Origin: Pseudomonas phage sp. 30-2
Reading direction: 5' to 3' (one strand)
DNA: 64,000 nucleotides
Sequence record: LC727697.1
This document shows, piece by piece, positions 23,245-42,270 of the stretch. The notes beneath the pieces are model-generated. The model did not search any database, was not told the origin of the DNA, and saw nothing but the letters and a program-made list of their open reading frames with translations. The first letter of the stretch is position 1. Each line of letters opens with the position of its first letter. The position numbers and the translations under genes are program-made.

Positions 23245-23248
23245 GGTT

Positions 23249-24121: not shown

Positions 24122-24191
24122 ACATAATCCGCTTTATTTTATAATATACATTATAAACGCAATCATACTAAAAGTAAAGAATAACTTTATA

Positions 24192-24626: not shown

Positions 24627-24637
24627 ATAATATCTCC

Positions 24638-25156: not shown

Positions 25157-25417
25157 TTACTCTTTTTTCTCCGTACCGTTTATGATAGATAATATGACTT
25201 CGTATTCGTCATATGCAGATTTTAATGCAGGATATTTTTCTGAAAGTAATTTATCTACTTCTAACATGCACAACATTTTTTCTATCTGTTCTATCTTTTT
25301 CCTCAATACTGAAAGTTCTGTATCATACATGCCTAGATCCGTTAATCCGGAGTAGCTAGCTGGCATAGAGTTTATCGTTGTAGTAGTATATATTCCCGAC
25401 AGTTGTTTATTATACAT
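25157..25417 (-). CDS. hypothetical small protein
   Basis: 86-aa ORF whose stop abuts the next start. Confidence 0.4.
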   Translation of the reverse strand: MYNKQLSGIYTTTTINSMPASYSGLTDLGMYDTELSVLRKKIEQIEKMLCMLEVDKLLSEKYPALKSAYDEYEVILSIINGTEKKE

Positions 25418-25431
25418 AATAGCATCCTTGC

Positions 25432-25809
25432 TTATTTGAAAAATTCTAAAACAGCTTTATTAATATTGTCTTCTGCCACTGTAATCACAACGTCCCTGTT
25501 AGGATATACAATGTTAATTTGTTCATATAATTCTTCTGCCATTGTTTCACAAGATTTACCATCTAGTTTTAGCAGAGATTCACTATACAGTCTTTCTAAG
25601 AACCGTCTAAATTGAATAAATTCGATATCTCGTTCATTATGAAAAACTTCAATTTTAACAGTAAAATAAAAATAATGAAAATGAGGATATCCTAAAAAAG
25701 ATACATCTTTCCAATCATTTGTAGCTAGTGCAGGGTTACTATCTGCACCCAGGTACATGTGAATTCCTTCTTTCTGAAAAGGAACTTCGATCCATCGTTT
25801 AATTCCCAT
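25432..25809 (-). CDS. hypothetical protein
   Basis: 125-aa ORF; QueD identity was considered but HGH motifs are absent. Confidence 0.45.
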   Translation of the reverse strand: MGIKRWIEVPFQKEGIHMYLGADSNPALATNDWKDVSFLGYPHFHYFYFTVKIEVFHNERDIEFIQFRRFLERLYSESLLKLDGKSCETMAEELYEQINIVYPNRDVVITVAEDNINKAVLEFFK

Positions 25810-25893
25810 AAAAATAATCCTTATTTTTAATTTTGTAATATTATAATGTTTTCGTATTAAAATGTAAATTGTATGCAGAATATTAAATGGAAA

Positions 25894-26955
25894 TTATTTT
25901 AAAATTCTTTTATACAACTCTGTTCCGTTATAATATTTGTTTAATTCGGGCAGTAAATTAAGTTTCATTTCTTCTACTATAAAATTATAATTACGCATAG
26001 TATAATCTATTAGGGTAACTAAATTTTTTAGGTCTGCCAGATTTTCCGAAATAGTCCATTCATTTGGATATACATACAAATTTCTGTTTTTTACATTTTC
26101 TGTCATTTCTTTATAAGACAATCGGTCAGGCAATAATGGAATTGCACCGACTAATGCACCTTCGTAGAAACCTATACCCAATGTTTCCTGCAACGAAGCC
26201 GAAAAGACAATTTTAGAACGTTTAAGAAGTGTATGGTATTCTGCCTTTGATAATTTAGTTTCTTGTGCAAAAACAAACTCGTAGTTAGGAAGTAATGATC
26301 TTAATTTTTTAAATATATTTGGTTGTTTTTCCGGAGAAATTCGATGAGGAAATAATACAGTATCTGTCTTGTTAGTAGAAGGTGTAAGTTGGTCAACTAA
26401 ATATTCCATTGGCCAACCTACTATATCGTGTCTGTTTATGTTAGCTGTTTTACCAAAAAGGTTATCTATCATGAGATCTTTACTAAAATTAGTTGCATAG
26501 AAATTCACATCATATATATTATATAACGATCTTTCAAATTCATATGACCAATTTTTATCAAAGTGCCTTCCTAAAAAATCATGCGGATCATACGAACCGG
26601 CGTGCCACAACCCCATTATTTTAAATTTTTTATTCATTAACGATCGCATGTAATTTAGTTGAACTACTGTGGGATTCCATGCGTCTGTATAGAGAACAAC
26701 ATCGTTATCGTTTAAAGTTTCTATTATACTTGCTAATTTAATGAATTGATTGCATTTGAATATGTTTGTATTTGCAAAGTTAAGGAAGGCACCCGCAGAG
26801 GTGCCTTCGTCAACATAATCTACATCAATTTGAACTATTTCTGCATCGAGACCGGATTCGTTTATATACTTTTCTAGTTGCGGTTTAAGAAACGTATTCC
26901 ATTCTGACGTATACCGAGTTTCTATTGATTCGATTGGGATTATTATAACTTTCAT
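25894..26955 (-). CDS. GT-B fold glycosyltransferase (family-1/GT4-like)
   Basis: FPHRISPEKQ and ETLGIGFYEGALVGAIPL correspond to the E-x7-E / nucleotide-sugar-binding region of GT4 enzymes. Confidence 0.65.
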   Translation of the reverse strand: MKVIIIPIESIETRYTSEWNTFLKPQLEKYINESGLDAEIVQIDVDYVDEGTSAGAFLNFANTNIFKCNQFIKLASIIETLNDNDVVLYTDAWNPTVVQLNYMRSLMNKKFKIMGLWHAGSYDPHDFLGRHFDKNWSYEFERSLYNIYDVNFYATNFSKDLMIDNLFGKTANINRHDIVGWPMEYLVDQLTPSTNKTDTVLFPHRISPEKQPNIFKKLRSLLPNYEFVFAQETKLSKAEYHTLLKRSKIVFSASLQETLGIGFYEGALVGAIPLLPDRLSYKEMTENVKNRNLYVYPNEWTISENLADLKNLVTLIDYTMRNYNFIVEEMKLNLLPELNKYYNGTELYKRILK

Positions 26956-28577
26956 TAATTGTCTAATCCTTGTTCTAATTCGGTTAGTTTTTCGTCGTTT
27001 ATGTCTGCAAATTTATTTTCATCTTCGATTGCAGTAGCATCTACATCAAAAAGACTGTTAAATGAGTTTGAGTTATAATTGCCGAAACTAATGCTGTCTA
27101 GCATAGGTCTATAATCTTCTAATAATTGTCGCTTATTAGGAGTACTCGGATCTAGCAATACTTCTACAAAATGATCAAAATATAAAATCGAACTAGGGAC
27201 GTGATTACTTACTTCTATAGTACCTTTCTTTTTATCTCTAGTCCAATCTCGGTAATCTACTTTAACTCGCAACCGTTCTATATCAACTAATCTATTAGAT
27301 TCTTGGATTGCAGCTATATGATTGTAAACATTGTGATTCATTATTAATAAGTAACTAAGTGAATCCCAACTGGTTTTACCTACTTTACCATTTTTATTTG
27401 CACTCGGTGGCACGTATTCTGCATCTTTTCCTTCTTTGAGAGCAGTTTCTACATCTTCTTTTGTAAAGTTTGCATTTTTAACACCATTTATTATACCATA
27501 ACCATTGTGATATGGACATATGTCTTTTAATGATAATTTTTCCATAATAGGACTCATAAACGGCATAGGAATATCCTTATCACTAAACTCTCTGCTGTCC
27601 GGAGCAGAATCCATATTATATCCCCACCGTTTGGGATTAAAATAATTATAGTTATATGCAAGACCGTATGCCACAGAAACAAACGGAGAAGCTGCGTCAA
27701 AACTTATGTTAATATTGGGATTATAATGTTTTCTTATATTTCGCTGAATAGATGTTAAGAAACAAGCCCAATCAGTCCTGCCTAGTCCGAGAAAGTGTAT
27801 CCAGTTTTTATCTGAAATAATATTATCATCTATTAAATCTAAGAATCGAGAAAGAGCACAATACATATTTCTCATGTTTATACCAGCAAATGCATACCCT
27901 TCGAGTGTATGACTAGCCGGATATCCCATTTCTACTACTTTAGCTGGGTCACTAAATGCTTTTACGTTGTCGTACCAAATTTTAGATGTATCTACATCTG
28001 ATCCCGATAATACACTAAGGAATTTAGTTGCGCCAGGAGTTCTGTTCTTCATGTAATAATGTAAATTATGAAGAGAATAATCTAATGTATCTTCAAATTT
28101 ATTAAGACCGGTTTTTGAACTGTACGGAGGAGTAGCAGCAAACGCAGGAACATCTAGTGTCATTGACCAGTCGGCGGTATGTTCACACCATTTTAAAATT
28201 TCATTTCTTATTTTATCTCCGCTAGCTCCTTTAAAATCATCCCAGTTTAATTTAATTACACCGGTAGCTACCTGGAAACCACCCGAGTCTGCAATAACTG
28301 TTGTTTGTGTTTTGTCCCTGGCTTGGATCATCCATTCTTTTGCATCAGTTCTAGATAAAGACAGTTCTGCATGGCCTGCAGAATATAACCCATACCCGTA
28401 AAAGAATGTATCGCTAGATGGATCTAAAAAATTAAGAGTATTATATCCATTAGGAAAGCTAGGTATTTTTCTTGTAGACGGATCGTTAATAGAACTGTCT
28501 AATTGTTTTGTGTAAAACCCACTAATTGCAGGCAAATAGATCGCATAATCTTTTTGACTGTTTGATAAATTTTTCAT
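26955..28577 (-). CDS. tRNA-guanine transglycosylase-family protein (DpdA-like DNA 7-deazaguanine transglycosylase), 540 aa with C-terminal extension
   Basis: VIADSGGFQV carries the TGT catalytic DSGGFQ motif; the start overlaps the GT stop (ATGA). Confidence 0.7.
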   Translation of the reverse strand: MKNLSNSQKDYAIYLPAISGFYTKQLDSSINDPSTRKIPSFPNGYNTLNFLDPSSDTFFYGYGLYSAGHAELSLSRTDAKEWMIQARDKTQTTVIADSGGFQVATGVIKLNWDDFKGASGDKIRNEILKWCEHTADWSMTLDVPAFAATPPYSSKTGLNKFEDTLDYSLHNLHYYMKNRTPGATKFLSVLSGSDVDTSKIWYDNVKAFSDPAKVVEMGYPASHTLEGYAFAGINMRNMYCALSRFLDLIDDNIISDKNWIHFLGLGRTDWACFLTSIQRNIRKHYNPNINISFDAASPFVSVAYGLAYNYNYFNPKRWGYNMDSAPDSREFSDKDIPMPFMSPIMEKLSLKDICPYHNGYGIINGVKNANFTKEDVETALKEGKDAEYVPPSANKNGKVGKTSWDSLSYLLIMNHNVYNHIAAIQESNRLVDIERLRVKVDYRDWTRDKKKGTIEVSNHVPSSILYFDHFVEVLLDPSTPNKRQLLEDYRPMLDSISFGNYNSNSFNSLFDVDATAIEDENKFADINDEKLTELEQGLDN

Positions 28578-28649
28578 TATATTCCTTAATTATTCTTTAG
28601 TGCATATGTATTTAGGTTAATTCATTTATAAATGAAAAATATAGGGCAA

Positions 28650-28910
28650 TTATTGCCCTATATCATATATTTTTAATGTTCTTTTTGCCCATACACTTAG
28701 TTGTTCACACAACTCTTTTTCGGATTCTTGTTTATAATACAAATTGTCTGTTTTCTTAATACGCTCGAATATAATTTTTTCTTTCTTTGTAAAAAATATA
28801 TATTTTCTGTATACAAGAGTAACTGTAGTTATTGGTCTACCTATAGAATTGTAAGATTCCTGTACAATATAGTATTGCAATTTAACTAATTTACGAGCAG
28901 GTAAGATCAT
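28650..28910 (-). CDS. hypothetical protein
   Basis: 86-aa ORF. Confidence 0.35.
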   Translation of the reverse strand: MILPARKLVKLQYYIVQESYNSIGRPITTVTLVYRKYIFFTKKEKIIFERIKKTDNLYYKQESEKELCEQLSVWAKRTLKIYDIGQ

Positions 28911-28913
28911 TAT

Positions 28914-29660
28914 TTATGCACTTTTTGCAGGAAGAATATATTGAACTTCTATTAACCCAGTATCGAGTTCAATCATTAATGCACCCTGGCTAGAAATAGA
29001 CATAGTACATTTGCCACTATCTGCGTTTTTTAGAATTGCTAACACTTCTGGTAATGGCCAGGACCAGTTATTGCGTAATGTGCTCTTTACATCTTTTGCA
29101 AATGGTACAACGGTGCGGTCGCTAGTAGCACCGGTGCCTATGTGGAATTCTAAAACACCGTCTGTTACTTTAACTAAAAAGTTAGATTCATAAGAACCCA
29201 ATACAGCACTAAAATATTGAAGATCCTTCATCGCTTGTTTAGTAGGTTGAATAACTATATCCCACACAACTCCTCTAAACGGCGGAACTTTTAGCACTTC
29301 GTCTACTGTATCTCGTGCCATAAACCGGTACGACGATTTATGACCCGTCGAAGAAGAAAATACAATTTCTGCAGGAATTTCTTCACCGTTACGTTCTTGT
29401 TTCTTAATAGAAACTTCAGCATCATCTCCCGAATATGGTGGGAAATTTAACATACCGCTCAGTACAGACATTCTACTTAAACCTACAGTATCGTCTAACC
29501 CCGGAATGGATTTTTTTAAAGAACCGTACATAACTACAGTTTTATTGGTTGACATAGCTTCTAATTTAGTTTCATTTACAGAACCAATAATTTTAACAGT
29601 ATCTATAAAACCCAAACCGTGAGTGTTACGAACTACGTCCTTTAAATTGTCTACAATCAT
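28914..29660 (-). CDS. sliding-clamp-like protein (gp45-like)
   Basis: 248 aa, immediately downstream of the DNA polymerase as in T4-like replication modules; weak by-eye resemblance to gp45. Confidence 0.45.
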   Translation of the reverse strand: MIVDNLKDVVRNTHGLGFIDTVKIIGSVNETKLEAMSTNKTVVMYGSLKKSIPGLDDTVGLSRMSVLSGMLNFPPYSGDDAEVSIKKQERNGEEIPAEIVFSSSTGHKSSYRFMARDTVDEVLKVPPFRGVVWDIVIQPTKQAMKDLQYFSAVLGSYESNFLVKVTDGVLEFHIGTGATSDRTVVPFAKDVKSTLRNNWSWPLPEVLAILKNADSGKCTMSISSQGALMIELDTGLIEVQYILPAKSA

Positions 29661-29740
29661 TACTTATTATTCTCCTAAGATGTGTGTGAATTATACATTA
29701 AATATTTTCATAATGCAAGTGTACAAAGTATAGTTTTTGA

Positions 29741-30880
29741 TTACCAACCAAACAGCGAATCGAAGTGTGCAGCAGCTTCTTCTGTTTTACTAAAATCCCA
29801 TTTTAGAATACCTAAAAGGTTCTTAACTTTGTTATCTACTACTTTTTCTCTCATTAAATCTTCATCAAATGGCAAAGACGTAAACCATTCTGGTAAGTGC
29901 AATTCATCTACAGGATATGCTATACTAGTAAAATGATTGTCTGCGGTTTCTTTTAAATAACAAACAACACATTTTTGACCATCTGAGATTTTAGGAGTAT
30001 GTAGGTCTTTATTGATAAGCTTTAGTTTATTCCAATTCATCGCAGCAGACACGTGACCAGGGACAGTGATTCTAGACTCTCTTCCTGCTAACTTTTTATT
30101 CATGTGTTCTTCTAATTTATCTTCATATGTACTGATACCGTTGACGCCTTTTGGCATTCCCTTTTCCCACGGTTTCATTTTATTAAATTCTTTTTTAAAT
30201 TCTCTAATATATTCTATTACTTCATCTTCTGTTTTATGTGTTAGCACCATAACTAGAATTTCCATGAGGAATGTTTGGACAAATTTAGGCGTATCTGACC
30301 GACGTAAGTCTAAACCCATTGCTTTTACTTTTCCTGGGCTGTTTTCGTCGTCGTATCTAGTACCTTCTTTATCATACATCATAGCAGCATAACGTTTCTT
30401 TTTAATAAAAAGACCAGAAGTAGCTACAATTTCCCTACCTGACTTAATAACACCTTCTGAGTTTTTATATGGAACATTAAATGTTTGTTTTAAAAATTCT
30501 GGAAATGTATCACTTACTTGTGACGAAACGTTGTCGTATAATTTAATGACAGTATCTTTATCCCATTCCATTTCGCCAGATTCTACAAGGTCTTTTACTG
30601 CAGGCCATGCAGTAAAATAGCAAGAATTGTGAACTAATATATTATTTCCAAAGAAATACGGATTATCGGGATTTTTCATCCCTATATCGTATACATATTG
30701 TTTCTTTTTTCCTAAATTAGTTACTTTAGATACCTTTCCTAAAGACACATTAAATTTATTAGGATCTCTTTCTTTTATATTTTTGTTTAATTCTTCTAGC
30801 GCTCTTTTTGCACTTTTATATTCTTCGTCTTCTGTTTTTGCAGAAAATACACCTAAAAGGTGTTTTGTTAGATTATGCAT
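29741..30880 (-). CDS. DNA polymerase B C-terminal fragment preceded by intein C-half (IntC)
   Basis: Residues 1-85 end in KKQYVYDIGMKNPDNPYFFGNNILVHN, the intein blocks F/G with a terminal HN. The extein starts SCYFTAWPAV and contains the polymerase KKKRYA motif; its C-terminal region aligns with T4 gp43. Confidence 0.85.
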   Translation of the reverse strand: MHNLTKHLLGVFSAKTEDEEYKSAKRALEELNKNIKERDPNKFNVSLGKVSKVTNLGKKKQYVYDIGMKNPDNPYFFGNNILVHNSCYFTAWPAVKDLVESGEMEWDKDTVIKLYDNVSSQVSDTFPEFLKQTFNVPYKNSEGVIKSGREIVATSGLFIKKKRYAAMMYDKEGTRYDDENSPGKVKAMGLDLRRSDTPKFVQTFLMEILVMVLTHKTEDEVIEYIREFKKEFNKMKPWEKGMPKGVNGISTYEDKLEEHMNKKLAGRESRITVPGHVSAAMNWNKLKLINKDLHTPKISDGQKCVVCYLKETADNHFTSIAYPVDELHLPEWFTSLPFDEDLMREKVVDNKVKNLLGILKWDFSKTEEAAAHFDSLFGW

Positions 30881-32569
30881 TTATAAATCCTTTGTATAAA
30901 CAATATTTCCCGAATCCCAAATCCTGCCATATCCGTTTGCGTAAATATTTTCTACTACGCTAACCGAATTATTATAATTTTTTAATTTAACTTTTGCCTT
31001 GTCTTTAGAGAAAGATAATCTATTATATGTATCTTTGAAGTCAGTATAATAAAATCCAGGAGCTATTATTGAAGTTTTAGCAAATCCGTTTTTTTCATAA
31101 ACGTTTCCTACGGACCAGCGCCTATTTGCATATGATACTATCTTGCCTGTAAAATTACAAGAAACTACCTTTAATAATTTAGAAAACCCACCTATTACAC
31201 TTGTGTTATTTAGGTTACAAAATCTTACTATTTCCCAGTTTGCATTTTTATTAAACCTGGGCTTTGCAATTGTTAATAAAGAAACTAATTGATCCGAATA
31301 ATACAATCCGTATGCATGCCGAAATTGTGCATGACCTTGCAAATGATTCGTTTCGGCGAATTGCTTTGCATCATCGAACTTAACTTCTTTAATTTCTGTT
31401 TTTCTTGCATATATTTTATTAGATAAACCTAGTTTATTTTTTATTACTGAGATCCATATATCTTTTTTAGTATGCCATTCGTTGTCGAAAATGTGTAATA
31501 ATTGGATATTATTTTGTTCACATGTAGTGGTTTTATCAAGGTGGTATGTTTTATATTTTTGATCAGTTTCTATATGTTTAGAAGAATGCCAATAAAGTCC
31601 ATTATATTCTATTGCAAGATTTTTACTAGGAACATATATGTCTAATTCGAACCCGAATCTATTGTATGAATGAATTGTATCTGAGCAATAAGATTTAACT
31701 AAATCGAATATTTCTATTTCTGCCTTAGACCTGTATGTAGTTTCTGCTACTTTATCTAAACCGCATTTCTGACAACCGTGTCCGGCAGTATGATAGTATG
31801 ATATAAGGTTAAAGTCGCCGTGTACCGGGCATGTTATAATAACTTTATCTCTAATGTTAGTGTATATAGTTTTAGTATAGTCATAAAAATTATTATGAAC
31901 GTTATTACTTCTTTCTATGAAAGAATCTGTGTCATATGATAATCTATGACCGATGGCTTCGAACGAGCATTTTTTACAACCGTGACCTGATTGATGGACG
32001 TTTGCTTTTTGTTTAAATATTCCATGTATTGGACATTTAATAGATACATCTTTTGTTAAGAATGTAAAATCAGTAGATACAGAATAATCATAAAAATTAT
32101 TATGTATTTTAGAACACTGCGTTTTCCAGTTATTGAAGTTATCTAGACTTACTTTACGCTCAGCTGAACATTTTTGGCATTTGTGACCTTTTAGTCTAGA
32201 ACTAAGTTTTTGAACAATTATGCCGTGTTTAGTGCATCTGTATGTTATATTGTCAGATGTCGGAATATATCCATCCCACACACAATATATGTATTGGTCA
32301 TCATCTATGCATTTTATAAATTTATCAAATGAATACTTGTGTTTATTATATTTGCATTCTGTGTGATATTCTGCTTGTTTTGCCGAAACAGTTATTCTAT
32401 TACCACATTCTTTACATACAGGCGGCGATATTCCTTCTATATAATACTTGAATGCAACCCATTTATCAAATACGGGCTCATACAAAGAAAGAATACGATT
32501 GTATTCTTTCTTATTATTCTTTTTTAATTCTTTTGCGTATGACTGATAATAATCTTTATTCATATACAA
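30881..32569 (-). CDS. free-standing homing endonuclease (Vsr-like nuclease plus three HNNFYDY...CP.HG.F...GHGC.KC zinc-ribbon modules) between the intein halves
   Basis: AIEYNGLYWHSSKH and triplicated Cys/His modules. It starts 14 nt inside the upstream polymerase ORF and stops immediately before the ATG of the downstream polymerase ORF. Confidence 0.75.
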   Translation of the reverse strand: MYMNKDYYQSYAKELKKNNKKEYNRILSLYEPVFDKWVAFKYYIEGISPPVCKECGNRITVSAKQAEYHTECKYNKHKYSFDKFIKCIDDDQYIYCVWDGYIPTSDNITYRCTKHGIIVQKLSSRLKGHKCQKCSAERKVSLDNFNNWKTQCSKIHNNFYDYSVSTDFTFLTKDVSIKCPIHGIFKQKANVHQSGHGCKKCSFEAIGHRLSYDTDSFIERSNNVHNNFYDYTKTIYTNIRDKVIITCPVHGDFNLISYYHTAGHGCQKCGLDKVAETTYRSKAEIEIFDLVKSYCSDTIHSYNRFGFELDIYVPSKNLAIEYNGLYWHSSKHIETDQKYKTYHLDKTTTCEQNNIQLLHIFDNEWHTKKDIWISVIKNKLGLSNKIYARKTEIKEVKFDDAKQFAETNHLQGHAQFRHAYGLYYSDQLVSLLTIAKPRFNKNANWEIVRFCNLNNTSVIGGFSKLLKVVSCNFTGKIVSYANRRWSVGNVYEKNGFAKTSIIAPGFYYTDFKDTYNRLSFSKDKAKVKLKNYNNSVSVVENIYANGYGRIWDSGNIVYTKDL

Positions 32570-34967
32570 TAGATAATATTATATCACTGTCTGTTAAATC
32601 TGTGGGTTTAACTTCTAACAGTTCTGCATTACGTATAACCATAATAGAATGATCTTCGGTTACTATAACTTTATTTCCGTTGTTGTCTTCTATTTCGAAT
32701 AACTCTTTTTCTACTTCGTGGCGGTACACATAGTTTATATGCCCCATATATGGTTGTTTTGCAGAATTGTCCCACGACATTACCATAACATCTTCATTCG
32801 AAGCAAATTCTTTTTCTGCATGAACTACATGCTTGTCAGACACATTAAACAATTCTTCTATAGTTATTTTACCTAGAGAAGTATTTAGGATAGTTGATCC
32901 ATCTACACTATCTGTATCACCATAAATTACACAATCGCCTTCGTGATCGTAAATGCCAGTGAACATTTCGTTTGTTTTAGAAGCCATATGTCTAGTGATA
33001 CAGCGCCCTGTGAGTGTAGTACTCTGCCCTAGTCTTTTATCGTAGAATCTAGAATGTTCGTTAAGTAGTCCGCCATATAAGCTGTTCAATCCAATTTTAC
33101 GAACTAACTGGGCTTTATCCCAATATTCGTAATATTCGTTTTGCATATGGGAATCTGACATAACAATTGAATTGTCAGACGACACTTCTAGACCATACTT
33201 TTTCATATATATTGCTACTTCTTGCCAATTTTTTGATTCGACAAGATTTTTTAATGTAGCTGCAACATATACATCATTAATATTATAATGGTCTGCTAAT
33301 TCAACTTCGCCTACGCATATTCCATCTAATACCGATTTATCTTCTAAAAATACAGTTTTGTCGCTATGGTGTTCTTTATCTAAAGAATTATAATCTGATG
33401 CAATTTTCTGCATCCCTTTACGTTCTGCATACCATCTTGTAAGTAGTAACGGAATTACACCTGCTCTGTCTTGTGTAAATATAGTTCCGTTAGCACTGAT
33501 ATGCCAATTCTGACCACTGTTGAATACTAATTCGTATATTTCGGCACCTGACAGTTCAAACGAGCGCCCGTCTGCCATATCTAACGTTAATATAGTACCC
33601 CTGTCTTTGTTTAACACATATTCCATTTCTAAAGTGGTAAACCTATCGTTCCACCATGCAGCAAATGTATGTTTTGTTCCGCCTTTTGCACACCATTCTT
33701 CGATTGCAGGGTTAGTAAGTGTTAACCGAATTTGTCCTATAATAGTTTCTGGGCTCATGTTTAGTGCCCTTAACACAGAAGGATACAGAGAATTTAAGTC
33801 ACTGGAGCCAATATCTCTATGCAGTCCTACTTTAGGATATGCTACCCAGCCGCCTGCAGCTTTAAGTGTATCATTATTTTTAAAACGTTGCCTAGATGGC
33901 ACTACCATGCCGTTATTATGTGCTTCGATTATAATTGCTTGTTCGGTTGTAGCTACTGCACCCATAACTGTAGGGATAGGAATGCAATTACTATGTGCAA
34001 TAGTAGAAGCCAGATCTATATATTTTAATTTTCTATCTAACTTATCTAGGAGTCGAGTATCTTGAATGTTATATTCTAAAAACTTTTTAAAATCATATTT
34101 ATAAAGTTTGTCTAATGTTCCGTTGTATGGAACTTTTCGTTCACCTAGTTCAATTTCCGAAATAGAATCTAACGAGTAACTATGACGTTCTTCGTAATTA
34201 TATTTTTTATACAATTGGAGATAATCTAAATGTATTCTACCAGACGTTTCGAATGTAACAAAACTACTGCCGCCTTCTTGTTCAATATTGCGCTTCTTGG
34301 GCATAAGATTCCAAAGGCATAATTTTCTTAGTTCATTCTTACCTAATAATTTTACAATTCTGTTAAAAGTATAGGGAATATCGAAACGTTCTGAGTTCCA
34401 ACCTGATAAAATATCTGCATCTTCTACTAAGTCAATAAACATACTTAGCATTTCTTTTTCATTTTTACATATAATTGTTTCGCCTACTTCCGATGCTATG
34501 CGTTGTGCATCTTCTGGCAATATAGTCTCTGGTGCTAATGCTAAGCAAACCATTTGCTGCATCCATTGCAAATATACAGATATTGATATAATGGGATTAA
34601 AAGGATCAGCCGGGTCAGCATAACCGCGTTTTTGATCAAACGCGGTCTCGATATCGAAGAATGCAACATGTAAATCTGGCATAGGTGCATTCTTATAGTT
34701 TACTTCCAGGCATCTAAATTCTGGCCTGACGTCTATTTCGCACGTTTGCGAAAAATCTAGCATTTTCATTTGAGTCATTTTTTCATTTATGCTAGATGGC
34801 TTAATTGCTTTAGCATTATTACCGAATATATCTTTATACGGTCCGTTTGCATCTAATATGTAATACGTATGATCTATAGGGTATTGTTTGTATATTCGTT
34901 TGCCTGCAGATCGTTCTGCAACTAGAAGTATTTCATTTTTCTTATCTTCGAAAATATCGATGTACAT
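32556..34967 (-). CDS. DNA polymerase B N-terminal fragment (exonuclease + palm through motif C) fused to intein N-half (IntN)
   Basis: Exo motif FFDIET and motif C VIYGDTD, followed by SVDGSTIL (intein block A) ... KVIVTEDHSIMV (block B, TxxH); IntN of about 117 aa is encoded at 32559-32909. The real start is MYIDIFEDKK at 34967 with AGGA 8 nt upstream; the track's longer start reads through a terminator. Confidence 0.85.
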   Translation of the reverse strand: MYIDIFEDKKNEILLVAERSAGKRIYKQYPIDHTYYILDANGPYKDIFGNNAKAIKPSSINEKMTQMKMLDFSQTCEIDVRPEFRCLEVNYKNAPMPDLHVAFFDIETAFDQKRGYADPADPFNPIISISVYLQWMQQMVCLALAPETILPEDAQRIASEVGETIICKNEKEMLSMFIDLVEDADILSGWNSERFDIPYTFNRIVKLLGKNELRKLCLWNLMPKKRNIEQEGGSSFVTFETSGRIHLDYLQLYKKYNYEERHSYSLDSISEIELGERKVPYNGTLDKLYKYDFKKFLEYNIQDTRLLDKLDRKLKYIDLASTIAHSNCIPIPTVMGAVATTEQAIIIEAHNNGMVVPSRQRFKNNDTLKAAGGWVAYPKVGLHRDIGSSDLNSLYPSVLRALNMSPETIIGQIRLTLTNPAIEEWCAKGGTKHTFAAWWNDRFTTLEMEYVLNKDRGTILTLDMADGRSFELSGAEIYELVFNSGQNWHISANGTIFTQDRAGVIPLLLTRWYAERKGMQKIASDYNSLDKEHHSDKTVFLEDKSVLDGICVGEVELADHYNINDVYVAATLKNLVESKNWQEVAIYMKKYGLEVSSDNSIVMSDSHMQNEYYEYWDKAQLVRKIGLNSLYGGLLNEHSRFYDKRLGQSTTLTGRCITRHMASKTNEMFTGIYDHEGDCVIYGDTDSVDGSTILNTSLGKITIEELFNVSDKHVVHAEKEFASNEDVMVMSWDNSAKQPYMGHINYVYRHEVEKELFEIEDNNGNKVIVTEDHSIMVIRNAELLEVKPTDLTDSDIILSIVYE

Positions 34968-34983
34968 AATTGTCCTACAAAAT

Positions 34984-35016
34984 AAAAAGCCGCGCAAAAG
35001 CACGGCTTGTTTTGAA
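34984..35016. terminator. rho-independent terminator
   Basis: AAAAAGCCGcgcaaaagcaCGGCTTGTTTTG. Confidence 0.5.
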
Positions 35017-35020
35017 AATA

Positions 35021-35320
35021 TTAACGACCTTCTTTAATTGCGTCTAGAATCTCTTCTACTTCATTAATCTTATCTAGTTCTTCGTTTAAAGAACGTTTAT
35101 GTGCGATTTTAATAACTTTATTAAGCTGGGAAGGCTTAACATTTACTTCTTCTGCAATTGCTTTAACTGTTTCTGCTAGTCCGGTTTTTAAATCTTCAAT
35201 TTCTTGCATGACTTGCATGCCTTCGGAAACTAACTGTTTAATTCGCCGGACGTCTTCAGCAGAGTAGTGGCGAGAATTTGGATTAATGTCAGTCATTGTT
35301 AACTCCGTTAAACATTGCAT
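35021..35320 (-). CDS. hypothetical protein (GC-richer)
   Basis: 99-aa ORF; may start at an internal Met (MTDINPNS). Confidence 0.5.
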   Translation of the reverse strand: MQCLTELTMTDINPNSRHYSAEDVRRIKQLVSEGMQVMQEIEDLKTGLAETVKAIAEEVNVKPSQLNKVIKIAHKRSLNEELDKINEVEEILDAIKEGR

Positions 35321-35376
35321 ATATTATACTAGTGTAAACGGAGTTAGTCAATGAAATTTTTCCTAATTTAAAGGAC

Positions 35377-37287
35377 TTATTGTTGTATTTTTACAGAAGT
35401 TATTTGTATATTAGATTTGGTCCCACATACTGCAAACTTAGTATTCTGTGTTATTGTAGAATCTAGACTTGTAGTAACAGATTGTCCTTGTGCAGTGCCA
35501 GAAGTAACTTCATAAGTAAACTGATTATTTTCGAAATCATATGTTATTTTAAAGGTATGGTTGGCAGTAGAATGAGGCAAACTACCTATAACACTACCTT
35601 GTTTAACTATTTGAATGACACTGTTAATTCTATCGGCATACGCATATGGGAATATACCGGAATTAAAATCAGATTCTGACTCTGCAAATGTGGTAGGAGT
35701 TGTGTTTGTTAAGCCATATCTCATTTGTTGTGTTGAATCTGAAGATATGGTATTTCCTATTATTTCTACTTTTTTAGAACCATATATAAAATATTTTTGA
35801 TAGCCGCCACCGGATGTTTGTCCGGAGGAATTAAATTGTATAATATTTCCCATAGCATCTGCTGTAGTAGTTGTGCCAGACAATACAGAGCGCGAATAAC
35901 TACCTGTATTTGTTAATAAATTGGGAAATGTAGGTAAACGAACCGGCGGAACGAAACCGTTTATATCATACATTGCTTTAGAAATACATCTTATATTCCA
36001 GCGTTCTGCTAATGCATAACCATCTGCTGGCGCAGTCCATGTGTTTCTAATAGGTATTTGACTATTCCATAGTGGCCTTGCCTCGTTTACTTGGGCTAGT
36101 CTAACACCATCTACAAATAATCCTATTACCCCATTTTTCCGCATTGCACATACATGGGTATCTTTGTTTAATACTAAAGTACCATTGGGTGCTTGCAATA
36201 CTCCGGAATTACCGTTTGCTTGGTCGTATAATCCGTCAGTGGAATAGAAATGTCTGACGCTTCCATTTTGTTGCATAGAGATAGACCATCCGATGTCAGT
36301 GCCACCCGAAGATGTCCATTGACCTATTAGTATGGCGCCGCCGGCGCCTACTGTAGATAAGTTTATATATAATTCTATTGTGTAATCGCCCGATTGCCAA
36401 TTTGTTACAGGAGAAAATTGGAAGCCAGAAGTATTATTAGTAGTTGTTACAAATCGTCCTGTTGTAGAATTAGATAAACCTGTAAGTAGTAAAGTAGGAG
36501 TATTCATAGTTTCTTGGAACAATGAATTTCGTTTACATGTTATTTGACCTACTACTAAGCTAGCATCTTCCGGGGTATAGTAGTCTGGCTTTACATCAGC
36601 CATAGTTACGCTAGCTAGTGTGAATGGTGCAACATACAATGCCTTGTCATTTACTATTCTAATATTTTTTCTATATCCATTAAAATAGTTATTTGTGGTG
36701 GCCATGCTTCTTGTAGAGAATATAGACCCCGATACAACATTAGTATGCCCTGCAAATGACACTTCAAACGAACCTGCTAGTTGTCCATTTACAAATCCAT
36801 ATAACATAGTGTCATCCCTACATACGGCTAAATGAACGTCTTGGTCTGAAGGTACTTGTACATTACTGAATGTAAATACTTGTCTAGTACCGGCAGTAGC
36901 AGTTCCATTATTCCATTGAAATACTAAATTGTTGTTAATTACAGATAACAACCAAAATTCGTTAGATGAATTCCATGTACCTATTATATTACTAGTAGAC
37001 GGAATTTCGCCTTCTGACCTTATTGTTAGTTCTATTGTAAATTTGGTATTTTTAAGTATACTAGGTAACTTTCTATAGAAATAATTGTTTACTGTGCTAC
37101 CGGAAGTATACAACGAACTATTTTGTATAGAAACTGTACCAGACGAAATCGACATCGATTCTGTTGCTTCGTCTAATGGTTCATTTGCTAGAAATTTATA
37201 TTGTAGGACAGGACCTACATCGACTAACGGCGCCGGTCTATATTTTATATGTAAATTTCCGTTATGATTAAATTTTCCTAATTTCAT
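35377..37287 (-). CDS. tail-fibre/structural protein
   Basis: 636 aa, rich in Ser/Thr/Gly/Asn, located in the structural module. Confidence 0.65.
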   Translation of the reverse strand: MKLGKFNHNGNLHIKYRPAPLVDVGPVLQYKFLANEPLDEATESMSISSGTVSIQNSSLYTSGSTVNNYFYRKLPSILKNTKFTIELTIRSEGEIPSTSNIIGTWNSSNEFWLLSVINNNLVFQWNNGTATAGTRQVFTFSNVQVPSDQDVHLAVCRDDTMLYGFVNGQLAGSFEVSFAGHTNVVSGSIFSTRSMATTNNYFNGYRKNIRIVNDKALYVAPFTLASVTMADVKPDYYTPEDASLVVGQITCKRNSLFQETMNTPTLLLTGLSNSTTGRFVTTTNNTSGFQFSPVTNWQSGDYTIELYINLSTVGAGGAILIGQWTSSGGTDIGWSISMQQNGSVRHFYSTDGLYDQANGNSGVLQAPNGTLVLNKDTHVCAMRKNGVIGLFVDGVRLAQVNEARPLWNSQIPIRNTWTAPADGYALAERWNIRCISKAMYDINGFVPPVRLPTFPNLLTNTGSYSRSVLSGTTTTADAMGNIIQFNSSGQTSGGGYQKYFIYGSKKVEIIGNTISSDSTQQMRYGLTNTTPTTFAESESDFNSGIFPYAYADRINSVIQIVKQGSVIGSLPHSTANHTFKITYDFENNQFTYEVTSGTAQGQSVTTSLDSTITQNTKFAVCGTKSNIQITSVKIQQ

Positions 37288-37289
37288 GT

Positions 37290-38237
37290 TTAACCTTTAA
37301 AGAAATATATTTCGTTATATCTGGGGGCAGTAAAATAGTTGGCAGCGCCAGGATAAGAACTACTACCGCCTATCATATATACACCGGTTTCTGTAACTAC
37401 ATATTCTGCAGACCAGCGGCGAGGCAACCCGGTATCTAAAATTTCCCATGTCATTTTATTTAAATCTAATATTTTAAATAAAAGCGTATTAGAAGAAGAT
37501 GACGCGCCGTATACAGCATATTGTTTATATACAAACCCGCCGAACCAGCTAGAAGGTGCTCCCGGAATTGTAGTAGGTAAAGTTGTCCACGTATTAGTAG
37601 ATATGTTGTATTCTAGAACGTCTGAAAGATTGTTTGATGTTTCGTTCCAGCCACCTAGTACATATATTTTCCCGTTATACGATCCTATGGTATGACCATT
37701 TCTTGGCGATGGCATACTTGTTCTTACTGTCCATGCTCTTGTACTAGCATTAAATCTATAACACAATGCATTTGTTATATTATTTTGCCCAATACCTCCT
37801 ATAACAAATACGTTTAGATTATCTACTGATGCGGTTCTTCCTTGTCCTCTAGAACCGCCGGCCATATCTGTATATCGTGTACCTGTTGCAGTGGAAGGGT
37901 TTATCTGAAAATACGAAGTATTATATCCATTGTTAGAACCACACAGCGCCCAAAAACTTCCATTGTAATAGCCGCCTCCTCCCCATGCCCAGGCTCCTAT
38001 GTTTCCGCTAGGACTTAACCAAGTATTAGTTGCTATATTGTATCGTCTATATATTTGTATTTGGCCTACACTAGGAACAGCTTCGCCCCCGAATATATGC
38101 AACATTCCGCCACCATATCCTGCAGTAAAATTTGCAATGTTTTGTGGCATCGTAGTAACTAAGGTTTTAGTTAAAAACGGTCTATTAATTGTTGCTGATA
38201 TTTTGCCTACGGATGGACTTCCTTTTATTTTCAACAT
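37290..38237 (-). CDS. Kelch-repeat beta-propeller protein
   Basis: Repeated GG.Y..GG / GKIYVLGG / YNISTNTWT Kelch-type blades. Confidence 0.65.
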   Translation of the reverse strand: MLKIKGSPSVGKISATINRPFLTKTLVTTMPQNIANFTAGYGGGMLHIFGGEAVPSVGQIQIYRRYNIATNTWLSPSGNIGAWAWGGGGYYNGSFWALCGSNNGYNTSYFQINPSTATGTRYTDMAGGSRGQGRTASVDNLNVFVIGGIGQNNITNALCYRFNASTRAWTVRTSMPSPRNGHTIGSYNGKIYVLGGWNETSNNLSDVLEYNISTNTWTTLPTTIPGAPSSWFGGFVYKQYAVYGASSSSNTLLFKILDLNKMTWEILDTGLPRRWSAEYVVTETGVYMIGGSSSYPGAANYFTAPRYNEIYFFKG

Positions 38238-38239
38238 AT

Positions 38240-38812
38240 TTAATTATCCATTAATCTAGTTTGAAGCAGCAAAAATAAATTTCTTTTTTCTGCAATATCG
38301 TCGGATGGTATTAATTCAGAAAATAGTTCAAAGTTGTTTTCTAAGACTAATTTTCTTGCTTTAGATGCACTTACACCTTCTATAGAAGTACTCTCTTCTA
38401 GTCTATTACCAGACGATATTATATCTAATTCTATGCCTATACTTTTTGCATATGCAGGCATATTTCTCTTGTAATCTTCTAATCTATCACTTCCTGCAAT
38501 AAAGGTTACGTGTTTATATTTTTTCGAAAGTAAATCTAATGCAGAAAACGGATTATTTATTTTAGATTCGTTAATATTTACCCCAGGAAAAAACATTTTC
38601 ATATATGATACTTTTTCTTCCCAAAGTAATGGATTTTTTTTATTTCCAGAAGAGTGAGACAAAAACACACAATGCGCAGCATTATATTCTTTTGCTATCT
38701 TTAGCATTTCTGATATAACTTTTCCGTGCCCTATTGTAGGGGGATTCATTCTACCATAAACAAACACTACTGAATTTAAAGTATTATTTAATATAGAGGT
38801 AAGTATGCTCAT
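38240..38812 (-). CDS. cytidylyltransferase-superfamily nucleotidyltransferase (TagD / RfaE-II / NMNAT-like)
   Basis: YGRMNPPTIGHGKVI is the (T/H)xGH motif, and the C-terminal SIEGVSASKARKLV matches the TEGISTTKIK-type motif. Confidence 0.6.
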   Translation of the reverse strand: MSILTSILNNTLNSVVFVYGRMNPPTIGHGKVISEMLKIAKEYNAAHCVFLSHSSGNKKNPLLWEEKVSYMKMFFPGVNINESKINNPFSALDLLSKKYKHVTFIAGSDRLEDYKRNMPAYAKSIGIELDIISSGNRLEESTSIEGVSASKARKLVLENNFELFSELIPSDDIAEKRNLFLLLQTRLMDN

Positions 38813-39019
38813 TGTCTAATCCAATTAAAGAGCTGACCCAAACGGGTCAGCTAACAAATTCCGACTTGTATTCTTGCACCAAGTAGCTATATGTGATACA
38901 ATGTTATGTGTGACTGTCAGCTATTAATTAAAAATACTTAAGCCTGGTCTGGGCTTGGGTATTCTATTTAAGTTCTACCAAAACCCCGAATGGTTAAAAC
39001 TGTGTATGTATTATTCATT

Positions 39020-39361
39020 TTAAGAGCCAGATGATTTGGTACGTTGTCTAATTTCGCCAAACACTGCCGCACCTGTTATTATAGTGCCAAATGCAATATG
39101 AAACAACCCTGCGTTTTGTAATGTTAATGGTTCCCATTTCTGTAATTTTAAAACTTCTGTTTTTTCTAGAACAAGATTTTGCTCAGATAAGTTAGAAATT
39201 TTAGATAACATTTCTTTGTTGTATTGATGGACTAGGACCGGCATAACAACAAAATCCATAACGCAGATAAACAAATAGACTAATGCCGCCAGCGGTTTCC
39301 AATTAAGCATTTTGTCCGAAGTTAGGGGTTTAGTGTTCTCTGACATTTTTTGTTTCCTCAC
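39020..39361 (-). CDS. two-TM membrane protein
   Basis: 113 aa with hydrophobic helices LAALVYLFICVMDFVVMPVLV and GLFHIAFGTIITGAAVFG; a CATAAATACT late-promoter-like motif lies upstream. Confidence 0.5.
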   Translation of the reverse strand: MRKQKMSENTKPLTSDKMLNWKPLAALVYLFICVMDFVVMPVLVHQYNKEMLSKISNLSEQNLVLEKTEVLKLQKWEPLTLQNAGLFHIAFGTIITGAAVFGEIRQRTKSSGS

Positions 39362-39477
39362 GAAAGAACCCCATGCTCTGGAGCCTCTACTCCGAGCAGG
39401 AACTCCTGTGCATAGTATTTTACTATACGAAAGTATTTATGAGTTTATTGTGTTTTGTGATCTGCTCTGTTTATACA

Positions 39478-39508
39478 TAAATAAAGGGCCCTAGGGCCCT
39501 TTATTTAA
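39478..39508. terminator. palindromic rho-independent terminator
   Basis: AAATAAAGGGCCCTAGGGCCCTTTATTTA, a perfect palindrome. Confidence 0.65.
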
Positions 39509-39519
39509 TTTAAAACAAC

Positions 39520-42204
39520 TTATAGAATTGTATATTGGAGTAATACAGTAACAGTACCTGTACTTGCGCCATGTGCAGCTATAGTTAGAGTAATATCTTG
39601 TCCGGCGACCGAATTAGAGAACACGTCCACTTGATATAATCCAGCTACCTCCGGATCATTAGTTGTGTCTGATGCTAGTGTAACTGAGTTATGAGTTACA
39701 GTAGCCCAGGCAGCAGTATCAGCAGCAGTATTTACTTTAAATATTATACTATTGATAATAATGCCGTTTGCAGGTAGATCGGTGCCTTCTATTATAGGAG
39801 TCGAACTATCAGTATCAAATGGAATATTTTCTAATTTTACAGTACGAACTGAACCTGCAGCAGAACCCAGTTGTGCAATAGCATCGGTATTAATTTTAAT
39901 CTGTGCATCTAATAACTTGTCTGCATTAGCTAAACTTGTAGCAGTAGTTATATAGTTAGTAGTTGCATCGGCAGTATAAGTACCATCTGTATTGAGCCCG
40001 GCGCCTGTTTCTATAGCATCTACTTCTGTTTGGTTGGCTTTTAGTGCTATATCGTCTTCGTTGGACTTTATTTGTGTATCTAGCAAAATAGTTGCTTGTT
40101 TTATACTAGTTGCAGAATTTAAATAATTTGTTCCAGTATAAGGTGCTAGTGTGCCATCTGTTCCTAAGCCAACAGCAGTCTCTATGGCATCTACTTCGGT
40201 TTGATCTGCTTTATCTAATATATCGTCTGCATTAGTTTTTACTTGTGCGTCAAGTAAAGTAGTAGCCTGTCTTATACTAGTTGCAGAGTCTAAATAGTTT
40301 GTTCCGGTATATGCAGAAAGAGTTCCGTCAGTGTTTAATCCCACAGATGTCTCTATGGCATTTACTTCTGTTTGTAGTGCTGTTATGTTGCTAGAAGCAC
40401 TCGAAACAGCAGTATCTACATATAGTTTGTTAACTAACGATGCGTCAGTTAAACCAGAAGAATATGCAGATGCAGTTACGCCGGTAACAACAATTTTTCC
40501 TGTGCCTTTTACTCCTAAGTTTAGGCCTAAGTTTGTATCTGAACCTAATGCAGTAATAGACGGGTTTGAACTCGCAGCAGCACCGGCAATAGCTATATTA
40601 TTTGCTAATGTAGAATAGAATATAGTATTAGTTTCTGTTGCAGTAATATAGTCTACTGTGTTTGCAGTGTTTCCTATAATAACACCGTCACCGCGTAGAC
40701 TTAGTTGTTCACCTAGTTCTGCACTTATTTCTGCATTACCATTGCCTTGTATTACTACTTCGCCTGTACCGTTTGGCGCAATAATTATGTTTCCGTTTGT
40801 TTCTGTTGTAGAAATTGTACTAGTAGCACTATCTACAGTCAGTGATCCTACATTCAGTATACCTGCAGAAAAAGTAAGAGCAGAGTTATCTTCTAAATGA
40901 CCGGAAGTTCCTGCCAGTACTATTCTTCCGCTAGTTAAGTTACTTGCAGTTAAATTAGACGAAGTAAGACCTGCAGAAGTAATAGTAGCAACAGCAGTAT
41001 TATCAGCAGTAAAGGTAATTGTACCGTTAGATCCTGTGTCTGTTACTACAACAGAACTGTCTAATTGAGAAATACTATTAGAAGAAAAACCAGATGTAAA
41101 TTCGGCAGCTAATTGGCTTATAGAAACCTTTTTGTTACTAGTTCCATCGTATATTGGGAGGACATCAGTATCGTTTAGTGCAGAGGAAACGGCAGTCAAT
41201 CCATTTACATCTAACCCTACTGTTATATTTCCTGCAGAACCGTCTGTATTAGATACAGCAATACCTAATTTATTGCCAGTAGTATCTGCAACTATAGTTC
41301 TACTTACATAGCTAGAACCAGATTTTACTATAACACCGTCGGTTTGTCCTAACGCAGTAACAACTCCTAAATCAGTAAATAATTTATTTACTGTTAATTT
41401 ATTATTAGTTGTACCGTTAGATACTGCTAGAGATAATGTATCAGCAGCAGTGCCTGTAAAATCCGATAAAGTAGGAATACTTAACGAAAATTCATTATCC
41501 GACAACGCTAGGCCAGCGCCAGCAGTATATGTTGCGCCTGCAGAAGTGTATTTTACCCAGAATTGCGGATCAACGTTCATCTGGTTAGGAGGAGTAACTT
41601 CTGAACCACCGTATTGTGCAGTTAAAGTATAACCGTCGCCTGCAGAAGTACCGTTTTCTACAAGAACATATGAGCCAAATATAAACTCATTATCTTCGTC
41701 CGAATCTGGTGCCCTGTCTAATGTAACTGTATTGTTTTCCGTGTCTACGTTAGTAACAATATAAATACCGTTTCTAGCTGCGCCAGCATCGTTGACAGTA
41801 GGTGTGTCACCTGTTATAGTTATACCTTCTAGTCTAACTAAAACACGACTTCCCATTTCCAGTACATGTCCGTCTACTGTTCTGGGGAAATCACTAAATA
41901 CACCGGCAGCCCAAGTTGCACCTGTTCCCGGATTAGTATTATTACCGTCTACAGTATATGACTGTTGTGTAGAAACTGAAACACTTTGGAGTGGTTTTAT
42001 TCCGCCGCTTATAGAATCTACATATGCTTTAGTTGCTAAATGTTCTGGTTGTAGGGGTGTTCCGCCTATAACGGGTGCATAGTTAGTACCGCCCAGGTCG
42101 CTAGTGAATGCAAATACACCGCTTGTAAAAGAGAGGCGGCCGCCTTTTTTGCCTAGCTGGACATCGCGTCCGATGCCACTTATGCTAAAATTTTTAATAG
42201 CCAT
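39520..42204 (-). CDS. tail fibre protein with three tandem ~47-aa repeats
   Basis: 894 aa with the repeat TEVDAIET.VGL.TDGTL..YTGTNYL.SATSI.QAT.LLD.Q.K.N.DDI three times; the repeat is visible at DNA level at about 39960-40400. Confidence 0.7.
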   Translation of the reverse strand: MAIKNFSISGIGRDVQLGKKGGRLSFTSGVFAFTSDLGGTNYAPVIGGTPLQPEHLATKAYVDSISGGIKPLQSVSVSTQQSYTVDGNNTNPGTGATWAAGVFSDFPRTVDGHVLEMGSRVLVRLEGITITGDTPTVNDAGAARNGIYIVTNVDTENNTVTLDRAPDSDEDNEFIFGSYVLVENGTSAGDGYTLTAQYGGSEVTPPNQMNVDPQFWVKYTSAGATYTAGAGLALSDNEFSLSIPTLSDFTGTAADTLSLAVSNGTTNNKLTVNKLFTDLGVVTALGQTDGVIVKSGSSYVSRTIVADTTGNKLGIAVSNTDGSAGNITVGLDVNGLTAVSSALNDTDVLPIYDGTSNKKVSISQLAAEFTSGFSSNSISQLDSSVVVTDTGSNGTITFTADNTAVATITSAGLTSSNLTASNLTSGRIVLAGTSGHLEDNSALTFSAGILNVGSLTVDSATSTISTTETNGNIIIAPNGTGEVVIQGNGNAEISAELGEQLSLRGDGVIIGNTANTVDYITATETNTIFYSTLANNIAIAGAAASSNPSITALGSDTNLGLNLGVKGTGKIVVTGVTASAYSSGLTDASLVNKLYVDTAVSSASSNITALQTEVNAIETSVGLNTDGTLSAYTGTNYLDSATSIRQATTLLDAQVKTNADDILDKADQTEVDAIETAVGLGTDGTLAPYTGTNYLNSATSIKQATILLDTQIKSNEDDIALKANQTEVDAIETGAGLNTDGTYTADATTNYITTATSLANADKLLDAQIKINTDAIAQLGSAAGSVRTVKLENIPFDTDSSTPIIEGTDLPANGIIINSIIFKVNTAADTAAWATVTHNSVTLASDTTNDPEVAGLYQVDVFSNSVAGQDITLTIAAHGASTGTVTVLLQYTIL

Positions 42205-42270
42205 TGTTATTAGTCCTTCGATATATTATACCGATATTTATCGGTATTTTTGTATTTTTACTTGCTAAGA

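Follow-up and report, generated by a model that had tools for sequence, protein, structure and literature searches.

A predicted split intein and a free-standing Vsr-like endonuclease gene in the family-B DNA polymerase gene of Pseudomonas phage sp. 30-2

The DNA considered here is a stretch of 64,000 nucleotides (nt) from Pseudomonas phage sp. 30-2 (sequence record LC727697.1), a jumbo phage of the PA5oct/MIJ3-like kind; it is called the window below. Analysis of its open reading frames (ORFs) places three consecutive ORFs on the minus strand at 29741..34967. The outer two encode the parts of a gp43-type family-B DNA polymerase (PolB), each joined to one half of an intein (IntN and IntC); the middle one encodes a Vsr-like endonuclease. 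The locus is laid out as follows, a slash in the motifs quoted below marking a splice point.

32556..34967, minus strand: ORF1, 803 amino acids (aa) from ATG
32910..34967, minus strand: N-extein, PolB residues 1-686, with the exonuclease domain and most of the polymerase domain; ends ...VIYGDTD in motif C
32559..32909, minus strand: IntN, 117 aa, followed by the stop codon at 32556..32558
30881..32569, minus strand: ORF2, the endonuclease, 562 aa when started at TTG
30881..32563, minus strand: ORF2, 560 aa when started at ATG, the start used in deposited records
29741..30880, minus strand: ORF3, 379 aa
30749..30880, minus strand: IntC N-terminal extension, aa 1-44, helical by prediction
30626..30748, minus strand: IntC core, aa 45-85, with blocks F and G; ends ...NILVHN
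29744..30625, minus strand: C-extein, PolB residues 687-980; begins with Ser+1 (SCYFTAW...), followed by the stop codon at 29741..29743

The C-terminal part of ORF1 reads ...VIYGDTD and then runs for 117 aa (SVDGSTIL...VIVTEDHSIMV...SIVYE) to its stop; the N-terminal 85 aa of ORF3 end in ...YVYDIGMKNPDNPYFFGNNILVHN (...NILVHN), and SCYFTAW... with the rest of the polymerase comes next. An initial annotation, made from the sequence alone, had described both ends in exactly these terms and proposed a split intein at motif C (YGDTD/S), a proposal borne out by the ORF ends, the intein profiles and the catalytic residues. ORF1 and the endonuclease ORF overlap in different frames, by 14 nt with the TTG start or by 8 nt with the ATG start, and the endonuclease stop TAA immediately abuts the ATG of ORF3; the 562-aa length, the 14-nt overlap and the abutting ATG given in that annotation all hold with the TTG start. 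At 30878..30883 (minus strand) the endonuclease ORF and ORF3 stand in the same frame, with one TAA between them. A read-through fusion across this in-frame TAA was considered and rejected, as the corresponding ORFs of phages Aes508 and PTm1 lie in other frames; for that reason the shared frame is probably a coincidence.

The two ORF ends cover complementary portions of intein profiles. Pfam Intein_splicing (PF14890) aligns through its positions 2-93 with aa 693-798 of ORF1 (E 2.6e-9, above the gathering score) and through its positions 99-155 with aa 22-85 of ORF3 (E 6.6e-5; 23.2 bits against a gathering score of 35.8). NCBIfam intein_Nterm (TIGR01445) scores 32.1 bits on IntN (cutoff 24.5), and intein_Cterm (TIGR01443) 15.4 bits on IntC (cutoff 15.6). 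At the level of sequence, both halves match curated intein profiles significantly, the C half by E-value only; a family-specific hidden Markov model (HMM) matches the C half at E 3.7e-15. A profile built from an alignment of 38 related PolB inteins matches 27 solved intein or Hint-domain (BIL) sequences, the best being 9HTH (E 1.6e-36).

Joined, IntN and IntC amount to 202 aa. An AlphaFold2 (AF2) model computed with the 38-intein alignment has a mean predicted local distance difference test score (pLDDT) of 89.8 and a predicted template-modelling score (pTM) of 0.83, with pLDDT of at least 95 for IntN and for the IntC core; it was used in place of a single-sequence model of the fused intein, which was discarded (pLDDT 43). 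The best Foldseek match of the joined model is again 9HTH, the fused Aes123 PolB1 split intein (target-normalised TM 0.84-0.85), and the remaining matches are inteins only. The predicted structure thus has the joined halves adopting the horseshoe-shaped Hint fold. The Hint-domain matches that the initial annotation had suggested looking for are significant on both ORF ends by Pfam, NCBIfam, the 38-intein profile and Foldseek.

The residues of splicing chemistry form a complete set: Ser1, the NX Arg-His, TxxH, the block F Asp, His-Asn and Ser+1. Ser1 directly follows YGDTD and is invariant in the 38 related inteins, as are T84, D86 and H87 of the block B/N3 TxxH motif (T84-E-D-H87), and D182 and N202 of IntC, which ends ...LVHN/SCYF; H64 and H201 are conserved in at least 90% of them. 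The NX motif is Arg63-His64 (VYRHEV), and an Arg/Lys-His pair at this place is specific to Ser1 inteins (Pasch et al. 2023, PMC10189870). There is no cysteine anywhere in the intein. By these sequence features and the predicted fold, it is a class 1 intein of the Ser1, cysteine-less subgroup. Net charges are -14 for IntN, +5 for the whole of IntC and +4 for the IntC core, concentrated in the first core strand of IntC; such opposite charges of the halves are as expected for ‘capture and collapse’ assembly.

The exteins are those of a gp43-type polymerase. The N-extein matches Pfam DNA_pol_B_exo1 and DNA_pol_B, and PHROG 262; the C-extein matches PHROG 1918/262. Joined, they come to 980 aa, contain all the polymerase motifs and align to RB69 gp43 (1CLQ) at E 1.6e-63. 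The junction itself is gapless (viYGDTDScyftaw against VLYGDTDSIYVSAD), so that the alignment to a gp43-type enzyme anticipated in the initial annotation does run across the break. The closest relative outside the genus, on an IMG/VR metagenomic contig (L006), is 51% identical and a single uninterrupted ORF of 883 aa that reads IIYGDTDSVYFSAWP here; the joined exteins are gapless against it too. Polymerases of Rak2-like and Atu_ph07-like jumbo phages (~47% identity) are likewise uninterrupted at this position.

Comparison of eight genomes, those of the window and of PA5oct, MIJ3, Deifobo, Callisto, PAC2, Cassandra and 30-3 (seven isolates, six countries), finds the 5227-nt region devoid of any indel, with identical junctions and all three ORFs intact in every one; MIJ3 and PA5oct are 98.1-98.3% identical to the window in nucleotide sequence. 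Variable codons with synonymous changes only, relative to those with amino-acid changes, number 63:9 in the N-extein, 19:4 in IntN, 47:26 in the endonuclease, 1:1 in IntC (none of the substitutions falling in its core) and 26:0 in the C-extein. From these ratios, the polymerase parts and the intein are under purifying selection; the endonuclease is less constrained yet not decaying.

The 85-aa IntC is long: the IntC of Aes508 has 39 aa and that of PTm1 43 aa, both without the extension, and most metagenomic ORFs of the IntC-PolC type start aligning at about residue 45-50 of ORF3. The initial annotation was right that an extra N-terminal stretch exists, and slightly long in putting it at about 50 aa; it is about 44 aa. 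A homologous stretch is found in three metagenomic relatives. One of them (P0124) is a contiguous intein at the same site and of the same length, 202 aa, as IntN and IntC together; it is 42% identical to the joined intein end to end (E 6e-55), and the alignment crosses the break. Among split relatives the closest, encoded on a contig of 150 kb (L013), has an IntN 54% identical to the one here and a 76-aa IntC that begins MKDNLIKILSATTKEEVAFAVKEFLNEV. The split IntC of a third (P0159) holds the homologous stretch too. In the AF2 model the extension forms helices at 121-130 and 136-153 (pLDDT 48-78), which protrude right after the strand at 110-116, at the canonical endonuclease-insertion point. 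Because of these homologous stretches and this position in the model, the extension is the intein's own linker, helical by prediction and kept on the C-terminal side of the break. The endonuclease gene would then have inserted at the linker's N-terminal edge, with no intein sequence deleted. A start of IntC at the internal GTG of codon 45, giving a 41-aa IntC, was rejected: this GTG, the sole internal alternative start of ORF3, has no Shine-Dalgarno-like motif, a good one stands before the ATG, and the extension has homologs in relatives. Since the stretch is conserved in a small clade whose members are contiguous (P0124), split with an endonuclease gene (this phage) and split without one (L013), it might also be a functional module, serving IntC solubility, a tuned or delayed assembly, or a contact with the polymerase or the endonuclease; we consider this unlikely.

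Relatives of the locus also bear on how it arose. The site is empty in the uninterrupted polymerase described above (L006); it holds a contiguous intein in P0124 and ~40 others; it is fractured, with an endonuclease gene, in this phage, Aes508 and PTm1; and in L013 it is split with the endonuclease gene lost, just 110 nt remaining between the halves. By sequence comparison, all four states of the model of Dassa et al. exist for the site, the last three of them in this intein clade. Homologs were gathered by exhaustive HMMER search, which replaced a word-indexed search with IntC and 55 aa of extein that had given one fragment and was uninformative.

The endonuclease divides into three parts, given here with the evidence for each.

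31754..32422, minus strand: N-terminal repeated treble-clef/zinc-ribbon modules (C..HG..Q..GxGCxKC); Pfam DUF723, invariant Cys/His columns among homologs
31448..31729, minus strand: predicted Vsr-like/EDxHD catalytic domain; profile match to 3R3P, invariant residues
30884..31411, minus strand: C-terminal domain of ~175 aa, residues ~385-560; Mom matches in relatives

The protein matches PHROG 559/3339 and has 5113 homologs. A direct phmmer search of it against the PDB gave no match, and a profile of 40 homologs, its own sequence included, was required; this profile matches the catalytic domain of I-Bth0305I (3R3P) at E 1e-6, in agreement with the Vsr-like assignment of the initial annotation. 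E306, D308, E319 and H326 (560-aa numbering) are invariant in the 40 sequences, and D308 and H326 align with D196A and H213A, the residues mutated in the 3R3P crystal construct. Among the 40, MTES_1575 is matched by 23 and Vsr by 3. There are four treble-clef/zinc-ribbon modules, which presumably bind DNA; DUF723 is found in 37 of the 40 sequences, the protein itself among them, and DUF4379 in 30. The C-terminal domain possibly has a GNAT/Mom-like fold, as 13 of the 40 match Pfam Mom (PF25680, GNAT-like; best E 9e-11) and the domain has a weak PDB match to a GNAT acetyltransferase (E 0.21); the protein's own Pfam scan yields no significant Mom match, and nothing relevant linking Mom or GNAT to Hef-type endonucleases was found in the searchable literature.

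The protein's own Pfam matches, taken to E 1, include no HNH family, and neither do the 22 families that the 40 sequences match. The label HNH, carried by the MIJ3 paper, the MIJ3 record and PHROG 559, is unsupported because no HNH profile matches; by profile and invariant residues the endonuclease is Vsr-like, of the EDxHD/Hef type, and not HNH. Phage Hef-type endonucleases belong to the Vsr-like EDxHD family (Taylor et al. 2011, PMC3239194), so that ‘Hef-like’, as used for PA5oct, and ‘Vsr-like’, as used in the initial annotation, agree. I-Bth0305I itself (PMC3239194) has a homologous catalytic domain and shares the catalytic Asp and His, but differs in being intron-encoded and 266 aa long, with N-terminal NUMOD/helix-turn-helix DNA-binding motifs and a C-terminal nuclease, where the protein here has its four N-terminal zinc-ribbon modules and an additional C-terminal domain of ~175 aa. 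A second Hef/EDxHD-like free-standing endonuclease gene lies in the window at 13538..15046 (minus strand, 502 aa), its product sharing 37.5% identity with residues 272-557 of the endonuclease at the polymerase locus. The gene adjoins a VWA-domain-like gene (12298..13482) and is not obviously within a split gene.

The arrangement is already known, and its finding here is a correct re-discovery. Where the initial annotation implied novelty (‘here in the essential polymerase’), it was mistaken: Imam et al. 2019 (Front Microbiol, PMC6892783) described the split intein in MIJ3, with block sequences identical to those here, and such loci are annotated in cultured Aeromonas and Tenacibaculum phages. 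MIJ3 orf153-155 and PA5oct gp311-313 are the same locus, with three ORFs and intein blocks A, N2, B, N4, F and G, and nothing structural differs from the locus in the window. The MIJ3 paper and record call the endonuclease ‘HNH’, against the Vsr-like/EDxHD assignment reached here, and neither the long IntC nor the two-codon offset from the paper's own comparator, the intein of Salicola phage SCTP-2, is taken up there. That mini-intein, in a jumbo-phage gp43 homologue, is 32% identical over the full joined length; it is contiguous, of 163 aa without a long linker (L003 3501..3989), and sits two codons upstream (YGD/S...LKN/TDS), with Thr+1 and a Lys-Asn end. Because of this offset, it is related but not strictly allelic. 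Some database labels are slips: in the MIJ3 record (LR588166) the C-terminal polymerase fragment is named ‘ATPase’ and the endonuclease ‘HNH homing endonuclease III’, and the records of Callisto and 30-3 label each of the three genes ‘hypothetical protein’.

The same site is occupied in the Aeromonas phage group. Humberg et al. 2025 (PMC11923092) purified and crystallised the Aes123 PolB1 intein and showed that it trans-splices; it is the best structural and profile match (9HTH) of the intein here. Splicing has been shown for other phage PolB inteins too, and PolB inteins already characterised are CP21, LCGC14, GOM-OPS-1 and PolB16. In GenBank, genes for an ‘intein-containing split DNA polymerase precursor’ flank a VSR-like endonuclease gene in both Aes508 and PTm1. 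Aes123 and Aes508 share with the present phage the site (Y-x-DTD/S...VHN/S), the Ser1/Ser+1 chemistry and the lack of cysteine, and Aes508 the free-standing Vsr-like endonuclease gene between the intein halves. There are also differences. The Aes IntN is only ~34% identical to the one here, and the Aes IntC is shorter (39 aa against 85); the charges have the opposite polarity, Aes123 PolB1 having +8 on IntN and -11 on IntC, as against -14 and +5 here; the Aes endonuclease, of 353 aa, is without the zinc-module array and C-terminal domain architecture; and the endonuclease and IntC ORFs of Aes508 lie in different frames and share 17 nt, whereas those here abut. Aes508 has a further, intein-less split upstream within its polymerase gene. 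PTm1 ORF-239/240/241 likewise have the site YADTD/S...VHN/S and a ‘VSR endonuclease’ gene between the halves, but an IntC of 43 aa, an endonuclease of 261 aa and a 247-nt spacer before the endonuclease gene.

The fractured-gene arrangement was defined by Dassa et al. 2009 (PMC2677866), whose loci, like this one, have a host gene split into adjacent same-strand ORFs with an intein half on each, the halves being separated by a free-standing endonuclease gene of the GIY-YIG or Vsr-like type. Their loci are metagenomic (gp41, NrdA, NrdJ, IMPDH, DnaE and others), with an IntC of ~35-45 aa; in many of them an untranslated region with a hairpin and a late-promoter motif precedes the endonuclease gene, whose ORF overlaps the IntC ORF by 6-69 bp. 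These last, non-defining traits are absent here: ORF1 is overlapped instead of the IntC ORF, and a hairpin lies inside the endonuclease coding region rather than upstream of it. With the defining features all present, the locus is, to judge from its sequence, a fractured family-B (gp43-type) DNA polymerase gene, and that description in the initial annotation stands.

One way to understand the locus is that trans-splicing restores a single-chain polymerase while the endonuclease acts as mobility factor, and this is very probably the case. For splicing in this phage the argument runs from homology and conservation, and it gains from the fact that the allelic Aes intein, at the same YxDTD/S site, trans-splices (PMC11923092). 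In this scenario, a class 1 cysteine-less mini-intein would first have entered motif C between YGDTD and S; later, a free-standing Vsr-like endonuclease gene would have invaded the Hint fold at the canonical endonuclease-insertion point, turning one gene into three ORFs. PolB(1-686)-IntN and IntC-PolB(687-980) would be translated separately, after which IntN, which is acidic, and the IntC core, which is basic, would come together as one Hint domain. Splicing would open with an N-O acyl shift at Ser1 and pass through transesterification to Ser+1 and cyclisation of the terminal Asn before an O-N shift completes it. This would yield the 980-aa polymerase with an intact YGDTDS motif, for which the expected junction tryptic peptide is TNEMFTGIYDHEGDCVIYGDTDSCYFTAWPAVK. 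Most probably, the endonuclease would spread the element by cutting alleles that do not have it.

Several points weigh against this account. The single-profile matches of IntC fall below the curated cutoffs of Pfam and NCBIfam; IntC has an atypical extension of 44 aa, which AF2 models at low confidence. Amino-acid changes make up 26 of the 73 variable codons of the endonuclease, a share above that of its neighbours, which makes its activity less certain. The MIJ3 paper (PMC6892783) terms the intein ‘putative’, the PA5oct omics paper says nothing of the polymerase, of a split or of the endonuclease, and no experiment on splicing or on full-length polymerase in this phage group was found in the literature.

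That no such experiment was found would also suit a two-chain enzyme, in which the intein halves merely dock the polymerase fragments non-covalently and nothing is spliced. Functional unspliced split polymerases (gp43A/gp43B of some T4-like phages) and a split NrdA (Aeh1) are known (Dassa et al. 2009, PMC2677866), and the intein-less split in the Aes508 polymerase gene could be taken the same way. However, the break here lies inside catalytic motif C, and without splicing ~200 aa of intein would stay in the active site; every residue of the splicing chemistry has been kept, the IntC core is invariant in the eight genomes, and the allelic Aes intein does splice. Docking alone is thus improbable. 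Still less can be said for a polymerase gene inactivated by the invasion and now decaying, with another polymerase replicating the genome: no supporting point was found, though no check was made for a second replicative polymerase, and the strong purifying selection on both exteins (63:9 and 26:0), the ORFs intact in all isolates and the full set of polymerase motifs leave it very improbable. The remaining alternative is a sequencing or assembly artefact of a classical intein with an in-frame endonuclease domain, for which the frame shared by the endonuclease ORF and ORF3, a single TAA apart, might be invoked. Yet eight genomes from different laboratories have identical junctions and stop codons and no indels, and in none of them are the three ORFs one continuous frame, the outcome that the initial annotation had named as fatal to its proposal; ORF1 and the endonuclease ORF are in different frames, and the EDxHD endonucleases of related loci are likewise free-standing, there in other frames. 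The artefact is refuted as far as sequence data allow, and its probability is close to nil.

If trans-splicing is accepted, the locus belongs to a class of genes in which selfish endonucleases permanently break an essential gene and a split intein rescues the protein. It is a clean cultured-phage example of that class, in a phage group with a therapeutic candidate (PA5oct). The present analysis adds the correction of the endonuclease family to EDxHD/Vsr-like, an explanation of the long IntC as a retained linker, and documentation of all four evolutionary states for the site. A naturally split cysteine-less intein is also a candidate orthogonal protein-ligation tool, of modest practical interest; since its charge polarity is opposite to that of the Aes123 PolB1 intein and it has no cysteine, it may be orthogonal to the engineered Aes/CL/CLm inteins that protein chemists employ.

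Two sequence signals bear on the starts of ORF1 and ORF3.

34987..35008, minus strand: terminator-like hairpin between the upstream gene and ORF1, from a consensus scan
30888..30892, minus strand: Shine-Dalgarno-like AAGGA within the 3'-terminal part of the endonuclease ORF, preceding the ATG of ORF3 by 7 nt

All deposited records start ORF1 at the ATG of 34967, which is also favoured as the true start because the hairpin covers the alternative GTG at 35003. No Shine-Dalgarno motif precedes the endonuclease start, and the endonuclease ATG lies 5 nt ahead of the ORF1 stop codon (ATGAATAA); together these suggest that the endonuclease is translated weakly, by termination-reinitiation. The overlap with ORF1 leaves the endonuclease gene no untranslated leader, and a search ahead of the gene for a regulatory hairpin or promoter found none. 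A perfect 12-bp stem with a 4-nt loop (AAGAAAGAATAC-AATC-GTATTCTTTCTT) does stand at 32485..32512, in the endonuclease coding region ~50 nt past the start; it is invariant in the eight isolates, the folding of the 151 nt around it has a z-score of -3.55, and the hairpin may limit endonuclease expression. Promoter-like matches in the region number 41, against 30.4 +/- 5.6 in shuffled sequence, barely above expectation. Scans of the whole window (1..64000) gave no tRNA genes and no Rfam family above its gathering score.

Some of the relatives are themselves elaborate. The polymerase gene of L013 (6740..6954 and 7001..8717) carries a group I intron (Rfam RF00028, 95.4 bits) in polymerase motif B (KINLNS/LYGA). 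In metagenomic polymerases the YGDTD/S site and the SCTP-2-type site two codons upstream are both widely occupied, and eight PolB sequences (P0253, P0161, P0122, P0241, P0202, P0189, P0228 and P0200) have two tandem inteins, separated by the motif C dipeptide ‘TD’ alone (YGD/intein/TD/intein/S). One metagenomic ORF (P0274) has the layout IntC-TD-IntN, which implies a three-piece polymerase with a middle extein two residues long.

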